Origin: a virus
DNA: 11,474 nt
Reading direction: 5' to 3' (one strand)
Virus genome (UHGV): UHGV-0044052
Position 1 is the stretch's first letter. The number at the start of each line of letters is the position of its first letter. Made by a program: the position numbers and the translations under genes. The notes beneath the pieces were generated by a model. The model was not told where the DNA came from. It saw nothing but the letters and a program-made list of their open reading frames with translations, and ran no database searches. Shown here piece after piece: positions 1-11,474 of the stretch.

Positions 1-413
1 GAGATAACCTTACACTGGTAACAACGGGCGCGGTGATGCGGCATTTACGTTGGGCAATGCCGGAGGCGTTGTTGATATCAGTACGTATGAATATACCTTG
101 CTGGATAATGGCAACCATAGCTGGAGTCTCGCAGAGAATCGCGCACAAATGCCCCCTTCAACCACGGATGTGCTGAATATGGCGGCAGCACAACCGCTGG
201 TATTTGATGCAGAACTGGACACCGTGCGTGAGCGTCTTGGTAGCGTAAAGGGCGGCGATGTGGAGTTCGGCAATTAACAGCCGCAACAACGTGACCACTG
301 ATGCAGGCGCTGGCTTTGAGCAAACATTGACGGGGCTAACGCTTGGTATCGACAGCCGTTTCTCCCGTGAAGAAAGCAGCACAACTCAGGCGGGTGTAGT
401 CTGGACGTTCTGA
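1..413 (+). pseudogene. 3' remnant of an outer-membrane beta-barrel (autotransporter-like) gene, reading frame broken
   Basis: Two consecutive plus-strand frames: one runs from the window edge to the stop at 275-277, the other from ~249 to the stop at 411-413 and ends ...QAGVVWTF with alternating hydrophobic/aromatic residues and a terminal Phe, typical of a beta-barrel C-terminal strand. Continuity needs a frameshift near 250-277. Family assignment is tentative. Confidence 0.3.
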
Positions 414-473
414 TAACAGAAAATAAACAGGCCGTGATGTGTCGCTGTCTGTTTATCGAATTAAATGCAGATA

Positions 474-506
474 TAAAAAAACCAACCGCAATAGGTTGGT
501 TTTCTT
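474..506. terminator. Bidirectional rho-independent terminator
   Basis: Stem ACCAACC (481-487) / GGTTGGT (494-500) with a 6-nt loop, flanked by an A-run upstream (ataaaaaa) and a T-rich run downstream (ttttcttgggattttt), so it can terminate on either strand. Confidence 0.6.
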
Positions 507-916
507 GGGATTTTTGGTCCACGAGAGTAGTTTAATTGAGCGTGTAACTTCATGATTTAAAATAATGTATATGATTCAACTTTTAAACCGTATAACCAAA
601 CGTATAACTAAAATGATTTGCTGAAAAAATGCACAATTCAGGGTCGGATTTTCCCGGATGTTTAATTTATAAAAACGAAGCTGGTGGATGATCTGCGTGG
701 TGATTTCCACCATTCAGAGCAGGGGCGGTCATCATGCCCATGCCATAACAAAAACCCCATATTCGTGGTTTTTCTGTGTTGTGGCTATTCTGCCGTTGCC
801 GTGCTGGTGGATATTTCCGTTATGGGGATCACCATATCGGCATCATGCCCACCAGCCAGCGCAATTTTGCGCTTTGCTTTAAGTTCAGCAAGTTACCGCG
901 CCGGATTACGCCAATG

Positions 917-1101
917 GCTGTTTCCGAAAGAATCAACGGGTTAGGCCTTAATGGGCTGCGTGGTAATTATCAGCATCCAGAATATGACGGGTTATGTTTC
1001 CGACCTCCTCAATTTGAGGTTCCCGAAAATATCAACGGGTTAGGCTGGTTTCCCCGATGTTCGCCGCTGGCGAATTTCGAAAATATCAACCAGTTACCGC
1101 C
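917..1101 (+). repeat. Three imperfect ~25-bp direct repeats (core GAAA(G/A)(A/T)ATCAAC(G/C)(G/A)GTTA(G/C)(G/C)C)
   Basis: Copies at ~917-943 (ttccgaaagaatcaacgggttaggc), ~1019-1047 (tcccgaaaatatcaacgggttaggc) and ~1073-1101 (ttcgaaaatatcaaccagttaccgc). A CCTCAA-t-TTGAGG palindrome lies at ~1007-1019. No convincing ORF covers them. Confidence 0.6.
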
Positions 1102-1375
1102 GCAACCGCTCCGGCTTCTTCCAGTGGTATGTAATTTTCTCCGTTTCCCGATACAGTGCCACGCGGCGATTGTAGGCCAGCATTTCAAGAACGCGGATCC
1201 GTATGTTGCGCATATCCACATCATTAAGCTGGATACCATCACGGCGCATCACCTCAGCAACAACACGCGCATAATTTTCGGCTGTCACGCTGTCCGGCTG
1301 CGTGGCCTGTTCGTCAGTCTGCTGGCTGATTCCACCAGCACGGCGGATTAATCCCAGTATTTCGGCTTCTGTCAT
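1094..1375 (-). CDS. Hypothetical protein (93 aa) adjacent to cos A
   Basis: ORF of 93 codons with non-repetitive composition, ATG at 1375 with a weak SD. The overlapping plus-strand 191-aa ORF looks like an antisense artefact. No recognisable family. Confidence 0.45.
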   Translation of the reverse strand: MTEAEILGLIRRAGGISQQTDEQATQPDSVTAENYARVVAEVMRRDGIQLNDVDMRNIRIRVLEMLAYNRRVALYRETEKITYHWKKPERLRR

Positions 1376-1408
1376 TGTGCACCCATCGTTCTGATTGTCT
1401 GGTGTCGT

Positions 1409-1631
1409 CGGGTCCTTCCTGGAATTATGGACCCGTTACGGGGCGGCGACCTCGCGGTTTTTATCTGTTTATGAAAATTTTTCTGGAAAAAGCATGTCGG
1501 TACTTCTCGAACATAACTATTTGTTTTTAAATAGATACACAATAAAAAGAAACGACACGGTAATCATCTAAAATGGCGATTTATGACGCTTTCATGTCGT
1601 TTCTCAGTTTTGTTCAATAATTGCGCGTCTG
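1409..1631 (+). other. Lambda-type cos site (cos A): cosQ-like, cosN, cosB-like region with R-site-like motifs
   Basis: cgggtccttcctggaattatggacccgttacg | GGGCGGCGACCT (1441-1452) | cgcggtttttatctgtttatgaaaattttt closely matches the lambda cos junction as recalled. Downstream GAAACGACA (1548-1560) and TGTCGTTTCTC (1595-1605) resemble lambda cosB R2/R1 Nu1-binding sites. Confidence 0.8.
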
Positions 1632-2174
1632 TTACTCGCCTTTCTTCTGTAGCAACTTTTCCGGTACGTTTCCGGTTGTTTCTTTCAAGTAATCAGCCAG
1701 TATCTGTGGGAGGTTGTCGGCAACTCTGGCACTGGCATTACAGGCTTTAACCACTTCCCTTTTAAGCCTATCCAGCATGGCGGGGGTAATCTGTGGGAAG
1801 CTCCTTTGCATAGTAAGCGGGAGGCTGTCCATGATTGATGAAATCTGACTCGCCAGCTTTGAAAGCGCGTACAGGCAAAACTCAGTATCAATCACGTCAC
1901 CGCGATCGCGCTCGTTTTTAAGTTCCTGCGCCTCCGCCTGTGCTGTCAGTAATCTGATCCTGACTCGTAAGAGTTCATCATCATCAATATCGCCTTTGTC
2001 GTTTGTAAGCTGGCTAATTGCATTGTTAACCCTATTGTCTATCACGCTGGCAACATCGTAAAACGCCTCACGGCCTTTACGTTCAACGGGAGTCACTCCC
2101 CACTTGTCGAACGCTGTCGCACTTACACGGCAGCTTTTCGCCATGTTTTTTTTGTTCATCAGGTGCGATTTCAT
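1632..2174 (-). CDS. Terminase small subunit, lambda Nu1 family
   Basis: 180-aa product. N-terminus MNKKNMAKSCRVSATAFDKWGVTPV resembles the Nu1 winged-HTH start (VNKKQLADIFGASIRTIQNWQEQGMPV). Central LLTAQAEAQELKNERDRGDVIDTEFCLYALSKLASQISSIMDSLPLTMQRSFP aligns with Nu1 LTRAQADAQELKNARDSAEVVETAFCTFVLSRIAGEIASILDGLPLSVQRRFP. Similar length to Nu1 (181 aa). Comparison is from memory, not a search. Confidence 0.85.
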   Translation of the reverse strand: MKSHLMNKKNMAKSCRVSATAFDKWGVTPVERKGREAFYDVASVIDNRVNNAISQLTNDKGDIDDDELLRVRIRLLTAQAEAQELKNERDRGDVIDTEFCLYALSKLASQISSIMDSLPLTMQRSFPQITPAMLDRLKREVVKACNASARVADNLPQILADYLKETTGNVPEKLLQKKGE

Positions 2175-2350
2175 TAATACACCAACTTAATTACTGCTTC
2201 AGGTTGGTGTATTGTTTGCATCTTTCCCTTTTCATTCATAAAGATAGAGCAAACAACAAAACCACCACCACCCCCCTGAAAAAGCTCATAAATAGCGAAA
2301 AACCGCGAGGTCGCCGCCCCGTAACGGGCCATAATTCCAGGAAGGACCCG
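2175..2350 (-). other. Second cos site (cos B), inverted relative to cos A, directly upstream of the TerS gene
   Basis: Minus strand reads cgggtccttcctggaattatggcccgttacg | GGGCGGCGACCT | cgcggtttttcgctatttatgagc. The cosN complement aggtcgccgccc is at 2308-2319. It forms a ~54-bp near-perfect inverted repeat with 1409-1462 (one indel). The cosB-equivalent region differs from cos A and contains a 9-bp-stem hairpin (tacaccaac / gttggtgta) just before the TerS start. Confidence 0.75.
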
Positions 2351-2376
2351 CAAAAAAGCCGGATTTCTCCGGCCTT
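2350..2376 (-). terminator. Rho-independent terminator after the 137-aa ORF
   Basis: Hairpin GCCGGA-tttc-TCCGGC (2358-2373) followed on the minus strand by a T-run (plus-strand aaaaaa at 2352-2357). Confidence 0.6.
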
Positions 2377-2379
2377 GTC

Positions 2380-2793
2380 TCAGATGGTTTTCAGTATGCG
2401 ATCGATGTCGCCGTCATCGCCTGGGTTTCTGCCATCGTATGCCATGCCAGCTGATACGGTTTGTGGGCTGTGCATGTCCATAAAGTTTTCAAAGGCTGCG
2501 GTAAGCTCTGGTGCAACCTTCGGGCGTTCCTGCTCTATGGTCATGTTCAGGATGTTTTTAGCCGTATCAACATCGATACAAGGCACGTTTGCCATTGCAC
2601 GCAACAGCGGCTGATAGTCTTTATGCTCATGAAGCGCCATAATCGCATCAGCGCGCGGCTTGTCCTGCTCTTCCAGTTTGTTGAGTTGATATACGGCCTC
2701 GTAGGTTGATAAACCTCTGTCAGCCATTGCCCGCGCTTCGGCTTTAAATTTACTCGCCAGCGGTAGCGCCATGATGCTTTCATTCGTTGCCAT
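2380..2793 (-). CDS. Hypothetical protein (137 aa) in the head module
   Basis: ORF with a strong SD (GGGGGA) 4-5 nt upstream of the ATG at 2793, immediately downstream of the decoration gene. No recognisable family. Confidence 0.6.
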   Translation of the reverse strand: MATNESIMALPLASKFKAEARAMADRGLSTYEAVYQLNKLEEQDKPRADAIMALHEHKDYQPLLRAMANVPCIDVDTAKNILNMTIEQERPKVAPELTAAFENFMDMHSPQTVSAGMAYDGRNPGDDGDIDRILKTI

Positions 2794-2805
2794 CGTTCCC
2801 CCTGC

Positions 2806-3093
2806 TTATCGGGCCAGCGGCTGAACGGATACGCCAGAACCCGCAAAGGCGGCGCATTTTTTCGCATCGGTGTCGACGCTCTCAGGCCAGTTAACGGCGG
2901 CAATATTGAATATCCCCGTCTTGTAACACTGTGCTGATTTCTGCTTTGACGTGTCCACGAGGTACGAAGTCAGATAAACAGCCTTGCCAGATTCCTGACC
3001 ATCCCACGGCTTAAACTCGCCATTGTCCGCCAGCATCAGCGGCAAAATGTACCAGCGTCGTGGATACCTGCTGACTGCCTGCAAATAACTCAA
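2806..3093 (-). CDS. Head decoration protein, lambda gpD-like (start uncertain)
   Basis: LPLMLADNGEFKPWDGQESGKAVYL...YKTGIFNIAAVNWPESVDTDAKKCAAFAGSGVSV aligns with lambda gpD [27 protein letters not shown]...[35 protein letters not shown]. The ORF as drawn starts at a TTG. The only SD-preceded ATG nearby (3109) is in another frame. Confidence 0.7.
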   Translation of the reverse strand: MSYLQAVSRYPRRWYILPLMLADNGEFKPWDGQESGKAVYLTSYLVDTSKQKSAQCYKTGIFNIAAVNWPESVDTDAKKCAAFAGSGVSVQPLAR

Positions 3094-3120
3094 TGTATGG
3101 AGTGTCCATAGAATCCCCCG

Positions 3121-4176
3121 TTAAGCAATTTTGACGGTAACAAATTTGCGAATATCTGCCGGAACCGGCTGCGGTGCGCTGTGCGTCTGCACGTACTCAA
3201 TCGCCGGATCGCCGTCCTCAATCCAGTTTTTCGGGTAGTACATGTTTTGCGTTGCGCCTGTTCTTACCGCTTCCTGATCCATAATCGCACCATAGGCCAC
3301 CAGCCCTTTGTTGTTGGTGTTGCCCAGGACCAGCAAATCAGGATCAAGGAAATATTTTTCTGTGCCGTCGCTGTCAGTGTATTTGCCGGAATAGACGATA
3401 AGGGCAATATCGCCCAGATAGCCTTTAAAGCTCACCACTTCGCCCAGGTTTTTACAGGCCAGCTCTGCGGCGGACTCTGAACCACGGGAAAGATCGTACA
3501 GCTCACGGAATTTTTTAAAGCTGCGTAACGTTCGCCATACCTCAACGCCCATAATCATGACGTTTGCGGGGCAACCAGCCTGATCGGCGTATAGTTCGAT
3601 ATCATAGATTGGATCGTGGGTTTCTTTGTCCTGCTCTGACCATTTTTTCCCGTCGGCCTGCTCTATGATGTTTTTTTCCGGTATCTTCCAGTCGATTTCA
3701 TAGCGCTCTATGCCTTCGCCCTCAATGATGTTTTTTCCGGTCGTTACCGCATTTACCGCCAGCCATTCCACGCGCGCTTTTATGGCGTTTATCTGGCGGC
3801 GCATATTGCCAGTAATCAGGCGCATACGGCGATAGGTAGGGTCGTTAAGCTGTGCCGGATCTTCTCCAGCCATGCGCATGATGGTTTTCGTTGGATCGAT
3901 TTCGTGCTTTGGCTTCATGTAGCCAGGTTTAATCGTGCTGGTTTCGTACCCTTTATCGCGCTGAACCTGGCTACCCACCATAGGCGAACAAAACGCCGAC
4001 ATGGTGACTTCTTCAATGTCCAGGGTATCCAGCATGATGTTTTGCGTGTTGAATGTCGCCACGTTCGGGAAAAACAGCGCGGTAAACAGCGGACTAAATT
4101 TAAATTCCGCAATATCCTCGCGATTCAGGTACGCGAAAAGCTGGTGTGTGTTAAGTGCCATTGCTTTGACTGCCAT
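3121..4176 (-). CDS. Major capsid protein, lambda gpE-like (HK97 fold)
   Basis: 351-aa product with conserved blocks shared with lambda gpE along its length: EFKFSPLFTALFF / KFKFDPLFLRLFF, KPGYMKPKHEIDP / TPGYVKPKHEVNP, DPTYRRMRLI / DPAYRRRRII, GDIALIVYSGKY / GDVAIVVYSGQY, YYPKNWIEDGDPA / RYPKNWVTTGDPA, SAP near the C-terminus. Confidence 0.9.
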   Translation of the reverse strand: MAVKAMALNTHQLFAYLNREDIAEFKFSPLFTALFFPNVATFNTQNIMLDTLDIEEVTMSAFCSPMVGSQVQRDKGYETSTIKPGYMKPKHEIDPTKTIMRMAGEDPAQLNDPTYRRMRLITGNMRRQINAIKARVEWLAVNAVTTGKNIIEGEGIERYEIDWKIPEKNIIEQADGKKWSEQDKETHDPIYDIELYADQAGCPANVMIMGVEVWRTLRSFKKFRELYDLSRGSESAAELACKNLGEVVSFKGYLGDIALIVYSGKYTDSDGTEKYFLDPDLLVLGNTNNKGLVAYGAIMDQEAVRTGATQNMYYPKNWIEDGDPAIEYVQTHSAPQPVPADIRKFVTVKIA

Positions 4177-4382
4177 TATTCACCCCCATGAGTCTGATTT
4201 ATGCCCAGCGCCGCGCGTAAATAGGAGCGTACCTGCCAGCCTGTTGACGGCTCAACCATCGCCAGCGGATCAAGTCCTGCCGCAATGCCTGCTTTTACGT
4301 TCTGCTGGTGGCGTTCCTTGAGCGCCTTCACGATGTCGGGGCTTATGTACACCGAAACACCGCCTTTTTTCTCTTCAGCCAT
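4176..4382 (-). CDS. Hypothetical protein (68 aa), first gene of the late operon
   Basis: ORF with SD AAGAGGA upstream of the ATG at 4382. Its stop overlaps the capsid gene start (TAATG), suggesting translational coupling. No recognisable family. Confidence 0.5.
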   Translation of the reverse strand: MAEEKKGGVSVYISPDIVKALKERHQQNVKAGIAAGLDPLAMVEPSTGWQVRSYLRAALGINQTHGGE

Positions 4383-4417
4383 AGTAAGAAATTCCTCTTT
4401 GACTTAAAAAATCATAA

Positions 4418-4466
4418 CTGGATGTTCATCCAGCTCTGATTATAATCATGATTGCATTTTGTGCAA
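4418..4466 (-). promoter_or_regulatory. Putative late (head operon) promoter with palindromic operator
   Basis: On the minus strand, TTGCAC (plus 4461-4466) - 16 bp - TATAAT (plus 4439-4444), followed by the inverted repeat CTGGATG-nn-CATCCAG (4418-4433) at the predicted transcription start. An ATTGCA-n-TGCAAT palindrome overlaps the -35. Confidence 0.45.
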
Positions 4467-4545
4467 TGATGTTGAGTTGCGTTGCAAATTATGAAATGAT
4501 TATCCCGATCATGTGTGTCAGTGCACCAAAAAGCCTCATATGCAA

Positions 4546-4586
4546 AAGCCCGATAAGCCACCTCTGACCTTATCGGGCTTTTTTAT
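4546..4586. terminator. Strong hairpin, likely insulating terminator between replication and late modules
   Basis: Perfect 11-12-bp stem AAGCCCGATAAG / CTTATCGGGCTT with a T-run (tttttt) on the plus strand and a shorter U-run on the minus strand. Confidence 0.5.
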
Positions 4587-4599
4587 CTGCCTGCAAAGA

Positions 4600-4760
4600 T
4601 GTCGAACGAAAATTAACCACAACCATCATCTTTTTTGCATCAAAACAATTAAAAACAATAAATTACGCTCATGATGATGATGACGATAAAATCACAAAAA
4701 TGCGCTTTTTTCCGCGCCTCCCGCCCCGTGTTCAGGCCCACCCCGCCAGGAGGACCCGTA
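4600..4760 (-). other. Degenerate cos-like relic (third copy)
   Basis: On the minus strand, ...acgggtcctcctggcgggg...acggggcgggaggcgcgg resembles cosQ-cosN but the cosN core is disrupted (GGGGCGG-GAGG-CGCGG versus GGGGCGGCGACCTCGCGG). Downstream, atcgtcatcatcatcatgagcgtaatttattgtttttaattgtttt resembles the lambda cosB I1 region (tcgtcataacttaatgtttttatttaaaat). Confidence 0.5.
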
Positions 4761-4782
4761 AAAAAGCCGGATTGCTCCGGTT
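4758..4782 (-). terminator. Rho-independent terminator after ssb
   Basis: Hairpin GCCGGA-ttgc-TCCGG with a T-run on the minus strand (plus-strand aaaaaa at 4760-4765). About 35 bp here nearly repeat 2337-2376. Confidence 0.55.
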
Positions 4783-4797
4783 TCTGTCACTCGTCGC

Positions 4798-5220
4798 TTA
4801 AAACGGTATGTTATCCCCGTACGGATCATCATTCCCCGCCTGTTGTTTTGCCCTGTTCAGCGCGTCAGTAGCCTGGCCCTGTTGACCTTTTTTGCCGCCC
4901 AGTCGCGCCGTTCGCGCACTGATTACACTGTCTGCGATAACCTGCCAGCCCTGCCGCGTTTCTCCGTTCTGCCCAGTCCACTGGCTGATCTGCATGTTAC
5001 CCGCCACGCTCAGGAGTTCACCCTTGCGGTGCCTTTCCAGTGCTTCGGCCTGTCTGCCAAATGCCAGGACGGATAACCACATCGTCGCCGTTCCGTCATC
5101 TGCCTGGCTGCACGGAAGGGGGACCGCCATACGCGCCAGCGTCATCGGTGTGCCCTTGCTGGTCTGTTTTACCTGCGGGTCGTCCACCAGCCGCCCGTAA
5201 GCGGCTATCTGTGCTGTCAT
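4798..5220 (-). CDS. ssb: Single-stranded DNA-binding protein (SSB)
   Basis: 140-aa product with an OB-fold-like pattern (GRLVDDPQV...TMWLSVLAFGRQAEAL...KGELLSVAGNMQISQWTGQNGETRQGWQVIADSV) comparable to E. coli SSB, a Gly/Gln-rich linker and an acidic C-terminal tail ending DNIPF (SSB ends DDDIPF). SD GAGAGGTGG present. Start overlaps the upstream ORF stop (ATGA). Confidence 0.85.
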   Translation of the reverse strand: MTAQIAAYGRLVDDPQVKQTSKGTPMTLARMAVPLPCSQADDGTATMWLSVLAFGRQAEALERHRKGELLSVAGNMQISQWTGQNGETRQGWQVIADSVISARTARLGGKKGQQGQATDALNRAKQQAGNDDPYGDNIPF

Positions 5221-5495
5221 GATTCCACCTCTCCGGTTTTAACGTTGATGGTTGTTACCTGTTCCGCTTCGGCAATCTCCCGTTCTGTCAGCGTGGCAAA
5301 GTTTGCCGCTGCTGTGGTCATGAATGCGCTTATCAGGTCGGGATGTTCCTTCGCGTATCCTTCCCCTACGTGTCGGTCTATCGTTCTGATTGCCACCTTT
5401 AAAGCGTGCTCTGTCATGTCTAACGCGCGATATTTCGGTTCTGTTCTGTCTCTGCGTTTTTTGAGTGATTTATTAAATTTCCCTGAAGTGTGCAT
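5217..5495 (-). CDS. Hypothetical protein (92 aa), co-transcribed with ssb
   Basis: ORF overlapping the ssb start by ATGA, begins just downstream of the iteron region. No recognisable family. Confidence 0.5.
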   Translation of the reverse strand: MHTSGKFNKSLKKRRDRTEPKYRALDMTEHALKVAIRTIDRHVGEGYAKEHPDLISAFMTTAAANFATLTEREIAEAEQVTTINVKTGEVES

Positions 5496-5542
5496 ATTTA
5501 TTTTTACCCCCTCGTTTAAAAAGTTTTGAGTTGTGCCTCCCC

Positions 5543-5767
5543 TTGTCTACCTATCTACCTTAGTGGCCCTCATGCCAGTAATGGCGCGGCTTTCAGCGGG
5601 GTAGAGTGCTTTTATCCACTATCTACCCCGTGTCTACCTCCCTGTCTGATTCAGGTAAAATCAGGTAGAGAGGGTAGATAGTGGGTAGACAGTAAAAAAA
5701 GGCTATCTACCTAACTTAATGCACTGAATTAAATGTATTTTTCTTTACTCAGGTAGACAGGGTAGAC
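5543..5767. repeat. Iteron array, putative origin of replication
   Basis: Eleven copies of the 7-8-mer GGTAGA(C/T/G)(A) in both orientations: forward at ~5600, 5664, 5673, 5684, 5752, 5761; reverse (TCTACC) at ~5545, 5553, 5621, 5632, 5705. An AT-rich stretch lies at 5693-5750. Immediately downstream of the primase gene 3' end. Confidence 0.7.
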
Positions 5768-5782
5768 AGCCATTGCAACAAA

Positions 5783-7537
5783 TTATAAAAACGCGTCGCA
5801 ATCGTCTGTTGTTATTGCGTTAGTCTGCGTTACTCCTTTAACTTTCCGCGTAATATATTCATGTCCGTAAACTTTCGCGGCTGGCTTCATAGCCTTGCCA
5901 AAGTCATTTACGTTTAGCGGTTTGCTCCTGCCTGCGTACGCCATAAACGCCAGATAGACGCGGTAAAGGCTGTTTCTGGTCGTGTACTTCACTGAATCGC
6001 CACCGCCGCCCATCATCAGGCCGCGTGCTTCCTCCAGAAAATTCAGGAACTGGCAAAACTCAATAACCGGATCCGTCTGTTGCTTTATTGCCAGTGCTTC
6101 ATCACCGTCACGCTGTTCAATGAGTAAAGCCCGTGCCTTTTCAGGGTCGGCAAAGTTCGCCAGCAAGCGGCGGATAATGACAGGGATTTCAGCCGCGATC
6201 TTTTCCGGTAGCTCCCTGTCTTTTTCTGCCTCGCTTACGATGTTATCGAACCGGAATATCACCCGACGACGTGCCACACCTCCGGCCCGTTCGGTGAATA
6301 TCATCGGATTGTTATTGGTTGCCAGCACCACCGCCCTGATTACCGCCGTAAAACGCTTTTCATATTTCGGGTTAATTTCCACGGGGTCGCCGCCCGTGAT
6401 TTTCTTGATGCCCGTTCCTTCGCCTGTATATTTCGGCTGGTCTGCCAGGACGATAAGACGACTCCCGACAACCTGCGCACGCCCACCAGCATCATCAAGC
6501 GATGTCATTTCAGCGCTTACCGTGTTTTGTTTCCCTGCCAGAAGGCTGGCTATGTGTGTGAATGTACTTTTACCGCTCCCGCCGTCTCCGGTGGCCTCAA
6601 TAAACATCTGCCAGTCGTACCGGTTCGCCATAATCATGTACAGCGCGGCACATATACGCATCATCTTGCGCGGGTCTTTTCCGGCTGCGTGCTCAAGCCA
6701 TTTATGAAAGTTTGGCGCGTTATCGCGGATGTTCTCCCCTGGTGCTGGTGGCGTGTACTCAATGCCGTTGTGCGTGGTGATCCAGTTCTCCGGCGTGTGC
6801 GGGGAAAATTCCCCCGTTTTCAGGTCAAGCGCACCATTGGCGAACGGCAGCAAATCGCCGGACGGCTCGCCCATTGGTTCGGCAATAACTTTTAACGCTT
6901 CCACGGCGTTATTGATTACGCGCTTGCTGAAAGTGGCCCTGTGCTCTGAATAGATCGCCACCATTTCGCGGCTAAGTTCCATTGTGCTGACCGGACACCA
7001 TACCCCGCCGCGCCATACGTGAACGATTTCACTTTCAGGATGTACGCAAACGCCATCAAAGCGATCGGCAAGCAGCTGCGCGCGCTCACTGTCCGCCATC
7101 TGCGAAAGTTGCGCCTTTTGCTTTACCGGAAGCTCAATGACCAGACCATCAGAAAGATTCTGGCGCTCACGGGCCAGATATTCGCGCCAGTTCTCCACCT
7201 TCTGACCGTGCATACCATCAGGGTAAAAATTTGCATCCTGTACGCCTGCCGCCGCCAGCTTCTGACCAATCGCCTTTATCATTACTGGCGCAAGATATCC
7301 GGCCCTGAATATGCGCACGGATTTTCTGCCTTCCGGCACAATTTGCAGCTTATCCAGTTCTGATAACTGCTGCTCCCCAAGCCACACAGGAGGCTCATTA
7401 TCTCCGGCCATACGCGCATCATGTTCCTGCCATTGTTTCGCGTGTGCCCAGGCATCACTACCCGCAAAAATAATGACTTCTGTTCCTTTGTGTTTTATGC
7501 CGCGTGACTGCTGTTTTACGTTCGGTGCCAGTTTCAT
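5783..7537 (-). CDS. Replication primase/helicase (P4 alpha / D5-like, SF3 helicase domain)
   Basis: 584-aa product with Walker A GDGGSGKST in the central region and a C-terminal region plausibly DNA-binding. SD AGGGGT upstream. Start overlaps the preceding ORF stop (ATGA). Domain assignment is from motifs only. Confidence 0.8.
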   Translation of the reverse strand: MKLAPNVKQQSRGIKHKGTEVIIFAGSDAWAHAKQWQEHDARMAGDNEPPVWLGEQQLSELDKLQIVPEGRKSVRIFRAGYLAPVMIKAIGQKLAAAGVQDANFYPDGMHGQKVENWREYLARERQNLSDGLVIELPVKQKAQLSQMADSERAQLLADRFDGVCVHPESEIVHVWRGGVWCPVSTMELSREMVAIYSEHRATFSKRVINNAVEALKVIAEPMGEPSGDLLPFANGALDLKTGEFSPHTPENWITTHNGIEYTPPAPGENIRDNAPNFHKWLEHAAGKDPRKMMRICAALYMIMANRYDWQMFIEATGDGGSGKSTFTHIASLLAGKQNTVSAEMTSLDDAGGRAQVVGSRLIVLADQPKYTGEGTGIKKITGGDPVEINPKYEKRFTAVIRAVVLATNNNPMIFTERAGGVARRRVIFRFDNIVSEAEKDRELPEKIAAEIPVIIRRLLANFADPEKARALLIEQRDGDEALAIKQQTDPVIEFCQFLNFLEEARGLMMGGGGDSVKYTTRNSLYRVYLAFMAYAGRSKPLNVNDFGKAMKPAAKVYGHEYITRKVKGVTQTNAITTDDCDAFL

Positions 7538-7833
7538 TTTTTACCCCTGAATCCGTTAATCATGGTTTTCAGCTTCTGGATGTTTGCCCGTGCCCTGGCG
7601 TTGCTGGTGGGCACGTTATGCGGCGCGGTCTGTACCAGAGAAAAATCACGCCGGAACTGATAAACAGGCATCACGCAATCATATTCGTAACCTTCACGGC
7701 GGTAAGTTACGCACCGTCCCGCCACGCCCTTAATCATTACCGTGCCGCCGTACTGGTCGCGGTAAATATCGCCGCGCGTAAATTTAGGGTGAGTGTTGCC
7801 ACTGGCAGTTAAGCCAGAATATTTAAGTTTCAT
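7534..7833 (-). CDS. Hypothetical protein (99 aa), early operon gene 6
   Basis: ORF with SD GGAGAA upstream, stop overlapping the primase start (ATGA). Basic C-terminus. No recognisable family. Confidence 0.55.
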   Translation of the reverse strand: MKLKYSGLTASGNTHPKFTRGDIYRDQYGGTVMIKGVAGRCVTYRREGYEYDCVMPVYQFRRDFSLVQTAPHNVPTSNARARANIQKLKTMINGFRGKK

Positions 7834-7838
7834 TATTT

Positions 7839-8072
7839 TTATTCTCCGGTGTGCTGTTCTTTATATCTATCGTGCAATAGATCTATTTCTTGCAGTTCCA
7901 TTATTACAGGCTCAAGAAGCGTTATTAATGCCGTGGCAATTCTTGATTTTTGTTTGTCGCGTTCATTGTCGCCAAGTGTTTCAAGCCATATGCGCAATAT
8001 TTCCAGCATGTTTTCACTGTGAGAAAGTGCAAGAAATGCGCGGTCTATTGTTTCGTGGTAAATATCACGCAT
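7839..8072 (-). CDS. Hypothetical small acidic protein (77 aa), early operon gene 5
   Basis: ORF with SD ACGGGGA upstream. Upstream gene stop TAA lies 1 nt before its ATG. Acid-rich, predicted helical by eye. Confidence 0.55.
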   Translation of the reverse strand: MRDIYHETIDRAFLALSHSENMLEILRIWLETLGDNERDKQKSRIATALITLLEPVIMELQEIDLLHDRYKEQHTGE

Positions 8073-8073
8073 A

Positions 8074-8295
8074 TTAATCCCCGTCCGTCGTTTTTCTTAA
8101 AATAACCTCTGTCACGAAATCAGCATAATCGGCGGCGATATTCAGTACATCAAGCCCCGTTGATTTATATTCTCTCGTGGAAAGTAAGAAAAAAGCCGCT
8201 CTAATAAGTTCTGGCATTGACGAAAGCGCATCAGCCGCATCATCAGGAACGCCGGAAAATTCCTGTTTCAGGGAATTAAAACGATCATCACGCAT
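8074..8295 (-). CDS. Hypothetical small acidic protein (73 aa), early operon gene 4
   Basis: ATG at 8295 preceded by a G-run. Overlaps the upstream ORF by 8 nt (ATGCGTGA). Asp-rich N-terminus. An alternative in-frame ATG at 8308 would give 78 aa; the ORF track's longer start at 8343 (89 aa) is not used. Confidence 0.5.
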   Translation of the reverse strand: MRDDRFNSLKQEFSGVPDDAADALSSMPELIRAAFFLLSTREYKSTGLDVLNIAADYADFVTEVILRKTTDGD

Positions 8296-8509
8296 AACCC
8301 CCCCCATTTTCACAATCAGCAACAAGAATATTTTTAGCGTCATTCAGCGACCGTGTTGCGATGTATCGGATACATTCCAGGGCGAACTGTGTCCGGTCTT
8401 TCTGTTCTTCTCCCTGCGCAAGCTCTGCAGTGCATTCAATATCGATAAGCGCGTGCATCAGCGTAGTGAGCGCGGCGGCTGCTGCGTCCGGTGTGGTTTT
8501 ATTGCACAT
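8288..8509 (-). CDS. Hypothetical small acidic protein (73 aa), early operon gene 3
   Basis: ATG at 8509 preceded by SD GGAGGGG. Overlaps the upstream ORF end by ~11 nt. The ORF track gives a longer N-terminus (start 8563) that lacks an SD. Confidence 0.5.
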   Translation of the reverse strand: MCNKTTPDAAAAALTTLMHALIDIECTAELAQGEEQKDRTQFALECIRYIATRSLNDAKNILVADCENGGGYA

Positions 8510-8729
8510 GTACCCCTCCGCATTTTTTTTCGTTAGAAATAAGCGTTCTTCTTTCCTGTTCATCGCTCAGGAATACGCAGACCTCACCGCTAAGGCGTTT
8601 AAGTAAGCCGATGATTGCCCCTGATTCGCTGTCGGTCATCATGCCAGGGTAATCCTCTGCCAGTGCGCAAATAACTTCGATTTGGTGGGCGCGTTCTGCT
8701 GCCTGTTGTAGTGTGATTTCCTGGCTCAT
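8499..8729 (-). CDS. Hypothetical small acidic protein (76 aa), early operon gene 2
   Basis: ATG at 8729 overlaps the stop of gene 1 (ATGA). Non-repetitive composition. Confidence 0.5.
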   Translation of the reverse strand: MSQEITLQQAAERAHQIEVICALAEDYPGMMTDSESGAIIGLLKRLSGEVCVFLSDEQERRTLISNEKKCGGVHVQ

Positions 8730-8926
8730 AAGCCTACCCCCTGACGAATACGGGCAGCAAATACCATCACGCAGCCAGCCGGAGATTGCTGACGCGCTTC
8801 CTGTTCGCTGGTGGCCTCGATGGTAATCACGCGCGGTTGTGCCGTGCTCAGGGCGATAAAACGCCAGATGTATTTATTCAGGTTGTACGAGTCCCGCCCT
8901 TGCGGGTGTATGGTATAATTTCTCAT
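8726..8926 (-). CDS. Hypothetical protein (66 aa), first gene of the early operon
   Basis: ATG at 8926 with SD GAGG ~6 nt upstream. Corresponds to the 3' end of the 355-aa ORF in the track, whose 5' part is low-complexity and antisense to the RHH gene and is not used. Confidence 0.45.
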   Translation of the reverse strand: MRNYTIHPQGRDSYNLNKYIWRFIALSTAQPRVITIEATSEQEARQQSPAGCVMVFAARIRQGVGL

Positions 8927-9122
8927 AGCTGCCTCGATAATCTTGCTATCGTTGGTGGTTAGAAGCCCCGTTACTGCTCCTACAGTGCGGGGTTTCGTCG
9001 TTTCTGCACCTTGCATTAACAAGGTGTAAGTAACTTTATTTATAGGTGGCTTACATGTCAATGCTTTTATGTAAGACTTTTTATGTGTATATTGTCTTAC
9101 ACTTTCATTGAGAGGATTACAG
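8927..9122. promoter_or_regulatory. Divergent promoter/operator region (genetic switch)
   Basis: Four TGTAAG / CTTACA half-sites arranged as two inverted pairs (9025-9030 / 9050-9055 and 9070-9075 / 9096-9101; the second is GTAAGAC-N16-GTCTTAC). Palindrome CCTTG-cattaa-CAAGG at 9009-9024. Candidate leftward promoter TTGACA (plus 9057-9062) - 18 bp - TAAAGT (plus 9033-9038). Candidate rightward -10 TATATT at 9088-9093. Confidence 0.6.
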
Positions 9123-9428
9123 ATGGCTACAGGTTCAAAAAACGCAAAATCACAATCACTGACAGCTCGGATCCCGCATGATGTTATTGAAGGCATGGAA
9201 TCCGTAAAACTGGACGGTGAAAGCAACGCCGGATTCATAGTAACCGCCATGCGCGGTGAAATCGCCCGCCGCCAGGCAGAAGGAAGCGGAGAAAACCCCC
9301 TGATTTCTTCGCACGATGCACTGGCGCAGGTGGAAAAACTCGGAATCAAAGCCGCCGAGGAGATCGGGCAGCTCGTCACTGTCGCACGTGAAGAACTCCA
9401 GCGCCGCAAGACCAAAGAACCAGAGTAA
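9123..9428 (+). CDS. Ribbon-helix-helix (CopG/Arc-like) DNA-binding protein, putative island repressor
   Basis: ATG at 9123 with SD GAGAGGA. N-terminal SLTARIPHDVIEGMESVKLDGESNAGFIVTAMRGEIARR fits a beta-strand / helix / helix RHH pattern. Divergent from the early operon across the operator region. Confidence 0.6.
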   Translation: MATGSKNAKSQSLTARIPHDVIEGMESVKLDGESNAGFIVTAMRGEIARRQAEGSGENPLISSHDALAQVEKLGIKAAEEIGQLVTVAREELQRRKTKEPE

Positions 9429-9485
9429 TCACCATCAGCGCCGTGGTGTAAGGTATTACGGCGCATTGCTATGCAGGACAACACA

Positions 9486-9659
9486 ATGACCGATAAAGAA
9501 TTGACCAAAACATTATCACCGGCACGGAAAAGACGGCGCAGAAAGATAGAGCATGAATCAGAAAGATTCGCGCCATGTGCTTTTGCCCTTGAGCAATTCC
9601 TTAAAGAATACAGGGAAAAGCGCTCATTGCAGGTATGGCAACGAACTGAACCAGACTGA
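9486..9659 (+). CDS. Hypothetical small basic protein (58 aa)
   Basis: ATG at 9486 with AGGA 8 nt upstream. Contains an RKRRRRK basic patch. Alternative start at 9471 as in the ORF track. Confidence 0.4.
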   Translation: MTDKELTKTLSPARKRRRRKIEHESERFAPCAFALEQFLKEYREKRSLQVWQRTEPD

Positions 9660-9753
9660 TTGCATTGCCCACCAGCCTGATAGCGGCTATCATCCCCGTG
9701 CTTATGTTTGGGATCATATACACATAAGGCGCAGCGGGTTAATTGTTCAGAAA

Positions 9754-9781
9754 GGCGGCTCCATATCGGGGCCGCTTTTTT
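9754..9781 (+). terminator. Rho-independent terminator between convergent rightward genes and alpA
   Basis: Stem GCGGC / GCCGC (9755-9759 / 9771-9775) with an ~11-nt loop, followed by tttttt (9776-9781). Confidence 0.55.
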
Positions 9782-9807
9782 CGTGTTTGTCATATCTGTG
9801 ATACCCG

Positions 9808-10014
9808 TTAAGCAGCCGTTCCGCGTGCTTCCTGTTCGCGTTCTTTCTGCCAGGCCAACACATCATCCTCATACCATCCGCGACGGCGTAAACCAACGCG
9901 AAAACCCTGCGGAAATTCTCCGGCGTTGATCATGCTTTGCAGCGTGCTGTCTGCCTTGATGTGGATAATTTTTTTTACTTCCTGGCGAAAGATAATTTTT
10001 CTGATTGCTTCCAT
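9808..10014 (-). CDS. alpA: AlpA-family transcriptional regulator / excisionase-like protein
   Basis: 68-aa product. KIIFRQEVKKIIHIKADSTLQSMINAGEFPQGFRVGLRRRGWYEDDVLAWQ matches the AlpA/Phage_AlpA HTH pattern (K..G.R.VGW.E.EV..W). Location near a P4-type integrase is typical. Confidence 0.75.
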   Translation of the reverse strand: MEAIRKIIFRQEVKKIIHIKADSTLQSMINAGEFPQGFRVGLRRRGWYEDDVLAWQKEREQEARGTAA

Positions 10015-10087
10015 CGTGATTTACCTTGTGAATCCGGTGTATTCCGGTGACAAATACGGTAAATCATCGGATATGGGTAAAAACAGT

Positions 10088-10121
10088 TCCCACCGTTTTT
10101 AAACGGTATACACCGTTTTTA
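10088..10121. promoter_or_regulatory. Palindromic operator upstream of alpA
   Basis: ACCGTTTTTAAACGGT perfect palindrome (10092-10107) plus a third CACCGTTTTTA half-site (10111-10121), within the alpA upstream region. Confidence 0.45.
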
Positions 10122-10145
10122 TATTGATGATTTGAAATGGAATTA

Positions 10146-10170
10146 TAAAAAAAGCGGCATTTCTGCCGCT
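10146..10170 (-). terminator. Rho-independent terminator after the int-proximal small ORF
   Basis: Hairpin AGCGGCA-tttc-TGCCGCT (10153-10170) followed on the minus strand by a 7-nt T-run (plus-strand aaaaaaa at 10146-10152). Confidence 0.6.
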
Positions 10171-10180
10171 TCCAGGATTG

Positions 10181-10411
10181 TTACCGCCATTTTTTGGGCC
10201 TGCCTCCGATCTTCATAGATGCCGGACGTACGACCTTATCAATACTTACCGCCAGATTTCTGGAAGCGCCACGGGATACCAGAAAATCTACTACCTGTTT
10301 TTTTGATGGGGCCGTCGTTCTGTCCTCCGGATCGTAGGTTGACCAAAATTCATGCTGAACCATCAGGGCCAGTTGCAGCCCGTCGCAATTGCATCTGATA
10401 TTTTTTTGCAT
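10181..10411 (-). CDS. Hypothetical protein (76 aa from the first ATG) between int and alpA
   Basis: ORF with its own downstream terminator. The ORF track starts 7 codons earlier at a GTG (10432). No clear SD. No recognisable family. Confidence 0.45.
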   Translation of the reverse strand: MQKNIRCNCDGLQLALMVQHEFWSTYDPEDRTTAPSKKQVVDFLVSRGASRNLAVSIDKVVRPASMKIGGRPKKWR

Positions 10412-10509
10412 CTTAACGGTTTCATGTTTCACGGCCTTGTCGTTAAATTTGATGCAATTATACGACGGTTTTACATGGTTTTCGTAGTTTTTACTGGTTT
10501 TCTGTACAG

Positions 10510-11474
10510 CTACACGGCTCGGATACCCCTTTTACCACTGGCGAGGGTTACGCCCGTCGCCGCAGCCTCGACAAATTCGCCCCACCAGCGCATCAGCACG
10601 ATGCGTTTTTCTATGTAGTTGCTCCGGTTGTATGCCCGTCTAACTTCGTTGGTGTCGACGTGGGCAAGTGCCGCCTCTATTACGTCCGGCTCGAATCCTT
10701 CCTCGTTCGCTGCTGTGCTGAATATGGCGCGTAATCCATGAGACACCAGCACGCCAGCGAATCCCATACGCCGCAATGCTGCGTTAGCTGTCTGGCTGTT
10801 CATCGGCTGCTGTGGGTCTTTCAGACTTGGGAAAACGTAATTGCGGTGGTGGCTGATTGGTTTCATGGCCTCCAGCACCGCCATAGCCTGACCGGAAAGC
10901 GGGATAACGTGATCCCTGCGCATCTTCATGCGTCCGGCAGGTATCGTCCATTGCTTCGCGTCCAGGTTGATTTCATCCCACCGCGTTGATGACGCTTCGG
11001 CGGGACGGGTTACGGTCAGTAACTGCCATTCAATCAGTAATCTGGTCTGCCGTTCTGTTGCCGATACTGATAAAGCCTGCATAAGCTCCGGCAGCTGTTC
11101 GGGGCGGATTGTTGGCATATGTTTTTTTACAGGTGAGGGAAACGCCTTACGCACATTCATAGCCGGATTGGCATCAATCAGCCCACTGTTGGCGGCGTAA
11201 TCCATTACCTCATTAACGCGCTGTAAAACCCGCTTGAGTGTTTCCAGGTTGCCGCGCTCCTTGATGGGTGTAAGCACTTCAACGAACCTTCGGGCGGTGA
11301 GGGTATCTATTGGCGTGTTGCCGATGAACGGGAATACATATTTATCCAGCGAACGCCAGATGTCTTTAATCGTGTTGGGGGCCAGATTCTGGCTGATTTT
11401 CACCTGGTACCATGCCGCCGCCACATTTTCGAACGTGTTCCCTTGTCTTCGGGCCTCTGTCTCTCTTTTTTGCC
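10510..11474 (-). CDS. int: Tyrosine integrase, P4-type (N-terminus beyond window end)
   Basis: C-terminal catalytic region with HGLRAIFSTAANEEGF...ALAHVD...VRRAYNRSNY (conserved R, H-x-x-R and Y). The reading frame stays open upstream of the listed GTG through the window edge (...TEARRQGNTFENVAAAWYQ), matching the NTFE..A..W motif of P4-family integrase N-termini. Confidence 0.9.
   Translation of the reverse strand, partial: QKRETEARRQGNTFENVAAAWYQVKISQNLAPNTIKDIWRSLDKYVFPFIGNTPIDTLTARRFVEVLTPIKERGNLETLKRVLQRVNEVMDYAANSGLIDANPAMNVRKAFPSPVKKHMPTIRPEQLPELMQALSVSATERQTRLLIEWQLLTVTRPAEASSTRWDEINLDAKQWTIPAGRMKMRRDHVIPLSGQAMAVLEAMKPISHHRNYVFPSLKDPQQPMNSQTANAALRRMGFAGVLVSHGLRAIFSTAANEEGFEPDVIEAALAHVDTNEVRRAYNRSNYIEKRIVLMRWWGEFVEAAATGVTLASGKRGIRAV

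Follow-up and report, generated by a model that had tools for sequence, protein, structure and literature searches.

A late module with capsid, decoration, scaffold-like and small terminase genes in the classical Gram-negative island EcCIATCC25922

Results

The stretch of DNA analysed here (the window), 11,474 nucleotides (nt) of UHGV virus genome UHGV-0044052, consists for the most part (588-11474) of the phage-inducible chromosomal island (PICI) EcCIATCC25922, an 11.3-kb classical Gram-negative island of Escherichia coli that was catalogued in 2018. Positions 1094-4382 are its late/packaging module. In the direction of transcription, on the minus strand, this module comprises an open reading frame (ORF) of 68 amino acids (aa), a lambda-E-type capsid gene, a lambda-D-type decoration gene, an ORF of 137 aa, the small terminase gene terS, and an ORF of 93 aa. 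The terS gene lies between two cos sites in opposite orientations.

Save for one 32-bp deletion in the window copy, the window matches E. coli ATCC 25922 CP009072.1:107113-118618 with 100% identity, and, this deletion aside, the same holds for Nissle 1917 and about 60 further complete genomes. In Table S1 of Fillol-Salom et al. (2018, ISME J; PMC6092414), EcCIATCC25922 is listed as CP009072.1:106749-118031, with a size of 11.3 kb, the integration site yejM-luxR, and the sequence of its att repeat. The att core repeat that ends the island in the window (588-613, CCGTATAACCAAACGTATAACTAAAA) agrees with this published att sequence and with the island end at CP009072.1:118031. Its partner (CCGTATAACTAAACGTATAACTAAAA), which we located beside int in Nissle 1917 (L001 19845-19870), places the two repeats 11,283 bp apart. 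Because the overlapping coordinates, the 11.3-kb size, the att repeat, and the yejM-side site are all concordant, we conclude that the two are the same element, of which the window misses the final 364 bp (the integrase N terminus and the other att). Whether this type of island had been described, a question that an initial annotation of the window considered undecidable from sequence alone, is thus answered by Table S1 of the 2018 study. A size within ~10-15 kb, att direct repeats as bounds, and a PICI-specific site matching the published table are all features of PICIs. In ATCC 25922, Nissle 1917, and related strains, the island adjoins tRNA-Pro, between yejM and a yejO remnant/narP. Its flanks in Nissle 1917 are chromosome, with the yejO-like remnant, narP, and ccm on one side, and tRNA-Pro and yejM on the other. 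The chromosomal flank within the window (1-587) is the yejO-like remnant, i.e. a frameshifted autotransporter beta-domain that is a pseudogene according to RefSeq.

As assessed by Pfam profile search, the gene at 3121-4176 (minus strand), which belongs to the c1499 family, encodes a 351-aa major capsid protein of the lambda gpE type. PF03864 (Phage_cap_E) matches residues 27-349 with an E value of 3e-52 and a score of 178 bits, against a cut-off of 22.9. A full-length alignment with gpE gives 44% identity, as expected from the initial annotation of the protein as lambda-E-like, and identity to the capsid protein of a CFT073 prophage is 45%. No relative above 47.3% identity was found in phages (50,697 records), and by this measure the capsid lineage is satellite-specific and distinct from every sequenced phage. 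The capsid protein is 97 and 95% identical to those of two sibling islands, EcCICFT073, the model Gram-negative cos PICI, and an island of O157:H7 (95% for the latter), with a ratio of nonsynonymous to synonymous substitution rates (dN/dS) of 0.13 against both.

The decoration gene (2806-3109, minus strand) is frameshifted in the window. The lambda-D-type profile HDPD (PF02924) matches the residual C-terminal frame with an E value of 9e-14 and a score of 52 bits, against a cut-off of 29. The frameshift is caused by the 32-bp deletion, which lies between 15-bp direct repeats (junction 3028-3042), and the frame that opens with ATG halts after 32 codons. The allele is intact in Nissle and most genomes; in Nissle it encodes 111 aa that are 36% identical to lambda gpD, and dN/dS is 0.06-0.30 against EcCICFT073 and the O157 island. 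The proposal of a lambda-D-like decoration gene therefore holds for its homology, but not for an intact gene in the window. Among 5426 complete E. coli genomes, the decoration gene is present in 597, and just two carry the identical deletion junction, both annotated as frameshifted (L007 8943-9246; L008 8943-9246). The two carriers differ in their island, which is of the terS type and lies in tqsA in one, and is of the rppA type and lies at roxA-phoQ in the other. The window's island beside tRNA-Pro is a third background, in which the deletion was found in none of the 5426 complete genomes. Its occurrence in three backgrounds points either to slippage that has recurred between the 15-bp repeats (CCGCTGATGCTGGCG) or to recombination as the means of its spread.

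The 137-aa ORF (2380-2793, minus strand), a homologue of c1501, bears on the earlier statement that nothing in the window resembles a scaffold. Its product matches the C-terminal end (positions 494-567 of 583) of PHROG 53, the gpC protease-scaffold family, with an E value of 2.7e-9, and the probability from hhalign is 93%. As assessed by BLASTP, an 83-aa alignment with residues 416-493 of a 501-aa gpC homologue from a CFT073 lambdoid prophage shows 36% identity (E 6e-10); direct pairwise BLAST against lambda gpC is weak (E 0.11). An exhaustive HMMER search identified P0042, a 195-aa Nu3-like scaffolding/capsid-assembly protein, as the nearest of its remote relatives. P0042 acts as a bridge, since it matches the "head scaffolding" and "capsid assembly" PHROGs, PHROG 1999 (that of the 137-aa protein itself), and PHROG 53. 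The 137-aa protein can be read as a homologue of the C-terminal part of gpC/Nu3 scaffolds, without the protease, for which a scaffold function is predicted, and the absence of a scaffold gene can no longer be maintained. Selection on this gene is reflected in a dN/dS of 0.23-0.25 (against EcCICFT073 and the O157 island). Many members of the family, which includes homologues P0001-P0038, carry the NCBI name "phage head-tail connector protein"; we rejected this name, which is without Pfam or NCBIfam support, as the evidence favours a scaffold C-terminal homologue. No solved structure in the PDB matched the 137-aa protein by sequence, and a word-indexed homologue search returned close E. coli relatives and nothing else. 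A single-sequence AlphaFold (AF2) model is all-helical, with a mean predicted local distance difference test (pLDDT) of 42, too poor for a fold search. Downstream of the gene, a terminator-like hairpin (2352-2374, minus strand; GGCCGGAGAAATCCGGC followed by a T run) was read by eye from the sequence; it is kept in EcCICFT073 and the O157 island, and was not called by a consensus terminator scan.

The terS gene (1632-2174, minus strand) encodes a 180-aa small terminase of the Nu1 type, as assessed by matches to PF07471 (Phage_Nu1; E 2e-23, 83 bits against a cut-off of 30) and PHROG 57 (E 3e-53). The match is full length and collinear, with cos adjacent, and the protein is 35% identical to lambda Nu1 from end to end. 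Its best phage relative is gp1 of N15, with 46% identity, and no close phage copy of either the capsid or the TerS gene was found. Compared with TerS of the O157 island, identity is 97.8% and dN/dS is 0.12, a ratio that reflects purifying selection on the full-length gene. The gene sits where EcCICFT073 has rppA (c1503), and TerS and RppA have no detectable sequence similarity. The idea that the gpA-binding C terminus is the best conserved part of TerS was dropped, because identity to Nu1 is 29% in this part versus 46% in the middle of the protein. The terS-cos segment occurs in 479 of the 5426 complete genomes.

Upstream of terS, on the same strand, lies a cos site (2175-2349) composed of a cosQ-like box (2329-2349), an exact copy of the lambda cosN 12-mer (GGGCGGCGACCT, 2308-2319), and a cosB (2175-2307) with a G-rich block (2250-2276). 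The cosN is 134 nt upstream of terS, an arrangement that mirrors lambda cos-Nu1 and agrees with the initial annotation of a Nu1-like TerS with its own cos. On its cosB side, this site is 96% identical to the O157 terS-type island and ~62% identical, which is the background level, to the cosB of lambda, the prophage, and EcCICFT073; it contains no lambda-type R2 or R1. As judged from this difference between the O157 island and any phage, the cosB is island-specific and was inherited together with terS.

A second cos, which the initial annotation does not mention, lies in inverted orientation at 1410-1607 (plus strand) and is of the helper type. It has a cosQ-like box (1410-1430), an exact cosN 12-mer (1441-1452), and R3-, R2-, and R1-like elements (1493-1509, 1547-1560, and 1593-1607) that begin 53, 107, and 153 nt from cosN, compared with 53, 110, and 151 nt in lambda. 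On the cosB side, it shares 76% identity with the cos of the icd prophage of CFT073 and 72% with that of lambda, against a background of about 62%. When cosN matches with up to two mismatches were counted in the window and in 200 shuffles, none of the 200 shuffles reached as many matches as the window, which holds two exact sites. The inverted cos stops where a phage Nu1 gene would start, and resembles the left end of a phage that has been captured and is directed towards the 3' end of terS. Compared with CFT073, isolate NRZ105019 has the segment that the inverted cos sites enclose (rppA and both cosB sides) in the opposite orientation, with 99.4% identity (L008 9702-10513 versus L005 32529-33340). 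The breakpoints of this inversion fall inside the ~77-bp inverted cosQ-cosN repeats, and the cos-flanked cassette, which bears terS in the window, thus looks invertible.

Searches of Pfam, PHROGs, and NCBIfam matched no window ORF to portal, protease, TerL (large terminase), or tail families, in line with what had been noted from the sequence at first, and because the flanks are chromosomal in Nissle 1917, no morphogenesis gene is hidden just outside the window. As assessed by these profile searches, the late gene content is that of homologues of capsid, decoration, and the scaffold C terminus (hereafter the trio) plus TerS, and the counterparts of lambda A, W, B, FI, and FII are absent. The lack of lysis genes and tail genes and the incomplete set of head genes, in the window and its flanks, are those of a classical PICI. 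We rejected the class of capsid-forming PICIs (cf-PICIs), because portal, head maturation protease, head-tail connectors, TerL, and HNH are all unmatched in the window and flanks. We also rejected the class of P4-like satellites, as profile searches found no Sid or Psu and no Delta/Ogr-type activator, and cosN is the lambda 12-mer rather than of P2 type. The earlier description was right in that the element is neither P4-like in morphogenesis nor a complete capsid-forming island, and is probably a satellite that depends on a lambdoid helper.

The remainder of the island is a replication and integration end of PICI type. All assigned genes are on the minus strand, with the sole exception of a YlcI/YnfO ORF (9108-9428, plus strand), and this near-uniform direction of transcription, with the integrase at one end, is as expected for a PICI. 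In transcription order, int is followed by the AlpA-like gene, Icd-like fragments, four small ORFs, DUF4222, primase, iterons, a 92-aa ORF, the gene for a single-strand DNA-binding protein (SSB), and the late block. The tyrosine integrase gene (10510-11474, minus strand; Pfam Phage_integrase and Phage_int_M), the complete form of which is 1242 nt long in Nissle, has its N-terminal part cut by the window end. Beside it, an AlpA-like helix-turn-helix (HTH) regulator/excisionase (9808-10014, minus strand) has moderate support, since it matches Pfam Phage_AlpA below the cut-off (E 0.0035) and PHROG 66 (excisionase/regulator) with an E value of 5.5e-7; its RefSeq name is HTH regulator. A 355-aa minus-strand ORF at 8726-9793 does not represent a real gene: the last 88 aa of its translation match a family that PHROGs labels "transcriptional repressor" (Icd-like in RefSeq), and the remainder is an Icd-like pseudogene that the YlcI/YnfO-family ORF overlaps on the plus strand. 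The gene for a DUF4222 protein (7534-7833, minus strand) is followed by that for a P4/D5-type primase-helicase (pri-rep; 5783-7537, minus strand), which matches Pfam D5_N, DUF5906, and Pox_D5 and PHROG 864 (E 3e-175), and is 99.7% identical to the primase of EcCICFT073. Directly downstream of the primase gene, dense GGTAGAYAG-type repeats in both orientations form an iteron array (5539-5769) that is the presumed origin of replication (ori). This position agrees with that reported for Gram-negative PICIs, in which ori sits 3' of pri (PMC6092414), and a primase gene followed by an iteron-bearing ori is a further PICI feature. The SSB gene lies at 4798-5220 (minus strand; Pfam SSB, E 5e-15).

Two small ORFs complete the late module. 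The 68-aa ORF (4176-4382, minus strand), of the c1498 family, has a stop codon that overlaps the capsid start; it matches function-unknown PHROG 3255 (E 1e-36), and its dN/dS is 0.43-0.76. The 93-aa ORF (1094-1375, minus strand), the last gene of the island, is conserved and matches PHROG 1561, also of unknown function (E 1e-55); it is 91 and 89% identical to its homologues in EcCICFT073 and the O157 island, respectively, with a dN/dS of 0.13-0.34. Pfam and NCBIfam searches gave zero matches for the 68-, 93-, and 137-aa ORFs.

Lambda-like head genes in an incomplete set could also be what is left of a decayed lambdoid prophage whose head genes no longer function, a possibility against which the initial annotation had cautioned. 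Nevertheless, the region has the architecture of a PICI, with intact att repeats, an integrase, AlpA, and a primase-ori module, and the order E-D-scaffold-terS is not that of lambda. Purifying selection acts on the late-module ORFs, the lengths of which do not vary between islands at four att sites; about 480-600 of the 5426 complete genomes carry the module, and phages have no close copy of the capsid or TerS gene. With the trio intact in almost all copies and a capsid dN/dS of about 0.13, the trio is under purifying selection and no decaying remnant. We therefore regard a decayed prophage as hardly credible.

Discussion

How this island is packaged can be approached through EcCICFT073, for which lambda, phi80, and a resident lambdoid prophage all serve as helpers, and which requires the helper terminase (PMC6092414). 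Lambdoid helpers induce EcCICFT073 via AlpA, it replicates from pri-ori, and its helper-dependent high-frequency transfer has been shown experimentally. Rpp and the helper TerS together recognise the EcCICFT073 cosB, which differs from the helper cosB, and terminase is redirected there (PMC6739421). By analogy, a lambdoid helper would act through AlpA to cause excision of the window's island, which would then replicate from its primase-ori as concatemers. Island TerS would bind the island-specific cosB just upstream of its own gene and recruit a gpA-type TerL from the helper, and the cosN identical to that of lambda would be cut. About four island copies would be packed into full-size proheads made of helper capsid, portal, protease, and scaffold, and would receive helper tails, as the phage-sized DNA of EcCICFT073 particles suggests. 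Indeed, four copies amount to 45.1 kb, or 93% of the length of the lambda genome, and thus fit a full-size head. TerS with its own cosB would be the functional counterpart of Rpp with cos1 in EcCICFT073, the redirection of terminase being direct rather than indirect. Because the inverted cos has lambda-type R elements and a cosB resembling that of a resident prophage, the helper's own TerS might use this site, and packaging by that route could also occur. Taken together, the locus is likely to be EcCIATCC25922 with packaging into helper heads directed by the island's TerS and cos, and the trio would then be a conserved, satellite-specific accessory block that is not needed for transfer with the helpers so far tested.

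The initial annotation suggested that the island might instead make its own, possibly smaller, shells, in which case its capsid, decoration, and scaffold-like proteins would assemble on the helper portal and use helper protease, TerL, and tails. Such a function would account for a trio that is intact in almost all copies with low dN/dS (0.06-0.25), and for a capsid whose identity to phage capsids does not exceed 47%; of the 29 reference Gram-negative PICIs, 21 have capsid genes, which are unneeded for transfer (PMC10111431). There are precedents in SaPIbov5, the capsid homologue of which (Ccm) makes small capsids, and in PmCI172, which has a capsid homologue and makes small capsids. A truncated scaffold homologue also recalls the competing-scaffold logic of CpmB in Staphylococcus aureus pathogenicity islands (SaPI). 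The proposal is nevertheless contradicted by EcCICFT073, with its 93-95% DNA identity. The DNA packaged by this island was all phage-sized, with no monomer band, and deletion of c1499 (capsid) or c1500 (decoration) left both its transfer and its interference unchanged (PMC6092414). EcCICFT073 in which c1498-c1501 had been swapped for cas9 was still moved by phi80 (PMC10530653). In addition, the decoration gene is frameshifted in the window and in two other natural islands. Even though the marked strains of EcCICFT073 lacked an intact c1501 or c1499, which leaves some room for this possibility, we consider island-made shells unlikely.

The conservation and lineage specificity of the trio might also reflect a role in interference, as a decoy module whose proteins join the heads of certain lambdoid phages beyond those tested and poison or alter their assembly, or in widening the helper range, as a back-up capsid gene. 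Interference modules do occupy the same region in other PICIs (PMC6739421), and the back-up idea has been raised for PICIs integrated in the helper capsid gene (PMC10111431). However, of the genes that EcCICFT073 carries downstream of ori, each expressed singly, c1503 (rppA) alone inhibited lambda or phi80 (PMC6739421), and any target phage is hypothetical. Roles of this kind are therefore improbable in our view.

Four points weigh against packaging in helper heads under the direction of TerS as the full account. For the terS-type islands IHE3034 and 18098, assayed in 2018, transfer out of the native strains was poor or absent (PMC6092414). The gpA-binding C-terminal part of TerS is just 29% identical to Nu1, so that compatibility with the TerL of a given helper is a prediction. 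The purifying selection on the trio, in a lineage apart from sequenced phages, argues for a role that this model does not explain. Finally, the marked EcCICFT073 strains were "c1501::tetA" or "c1499::cat" (PMC6092414), c1501 being the homologue of the 137-aa gene. With markers placed in c1501 or replacing c1499, assays of capsid size may never have included an intact trio, and the reported absence of a phenotype and the phage-sized DNA may likewise come from strains in which the trio was incomplete. It is conceivable, at rather long odds, that the trio is a working kit for head remodelling or substitution with natural helpers other than lambda and phi80, and that marker placement caused it to be missed.

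Publications of 2018-2023 had already described this element and its family, and had shown that PICIs of E. coli carry capsid, decoration, and terS genes. Our additions are modest: a scaffold reading of the c1501 family, and the finding of two kinds of cos in terS-type islands, which combine an island-specific cosB with a second, helper-type cos. What stands out as a puzzle is that most Gram-negative PICIs retain a capsid gene that is dispensable and yet selected.

Among known islands, EcCICFT073 is 93-95% identical at the DNA level over window positions 911-1487, 2278-4584, and 4892-9209. The two islands share their gene order (int, alpA, small ORFs, DUF4222, primase, ori, SSB, 68-aa ORF, capsid, decoration, 137-aa ORF, a cos-flanked cassette, and 93-aa ORF), three identical proteins, and two inverted cos sites. 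EcCICFT073 differs by having rppA (c1503) and its cosB in place of terS and its cosB, by the presence of perC, and by an unlike integrase/alpA end and att site (roxA-phoQ). The 11.2-kb PICI of O157:H7 at roxA-phoQ, which the 2018 supplement lists for EC4115 and TW14359, shares the late module with terS included: identity to the window is 97.8% for TerS, 95% for the capsid, 99% for the decoration protein, and 94% for the 137-aa protein (all aa), and 96% for cosB. It differs in its RepA-type helicase replication module, perC, integrase, and att site. A terS-type late module is also found in tqsA of another strain, and late-module ORF lengths are identical across islands at four att sites.

More distant systems share parts of this plan. 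Like the window's island, cf-PICIs such as EcCIEDL933 combine an int-alpA-rep backbone with head genes of their own, but theirs are a full set (capsid, protease, portal, connectors, HNH, TerS, and TerL) that forms their own small capsids. SaPIbov5 with Ccm and Pasteurella PmCI172 are, like this island, satellites with a homologue of the helper major capsid protein; small capsids have been seen for both, whereas the sibling EcCICFT073 packages phage-sized DNA and its capsid gene is dispensable. Satellite phage P4 has in common with the island a P4/D5-type primase, an AlpA-type regulator, an Icd-like gene, and a P4-like integrase, but its Sid, Psu, and Delta were not found here, and the island's cos is of lambda rather than P2 type, with a lambdoid helper. 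Finally, lambda Nu1, C/Nu3, D, and E are homologous to the late-module proteins (35% identity, a weak C-terminal match, and 36 and 44% identity, respectively), and their order in lambda is reversed in the island, which reads E, D, scaffold, terS.

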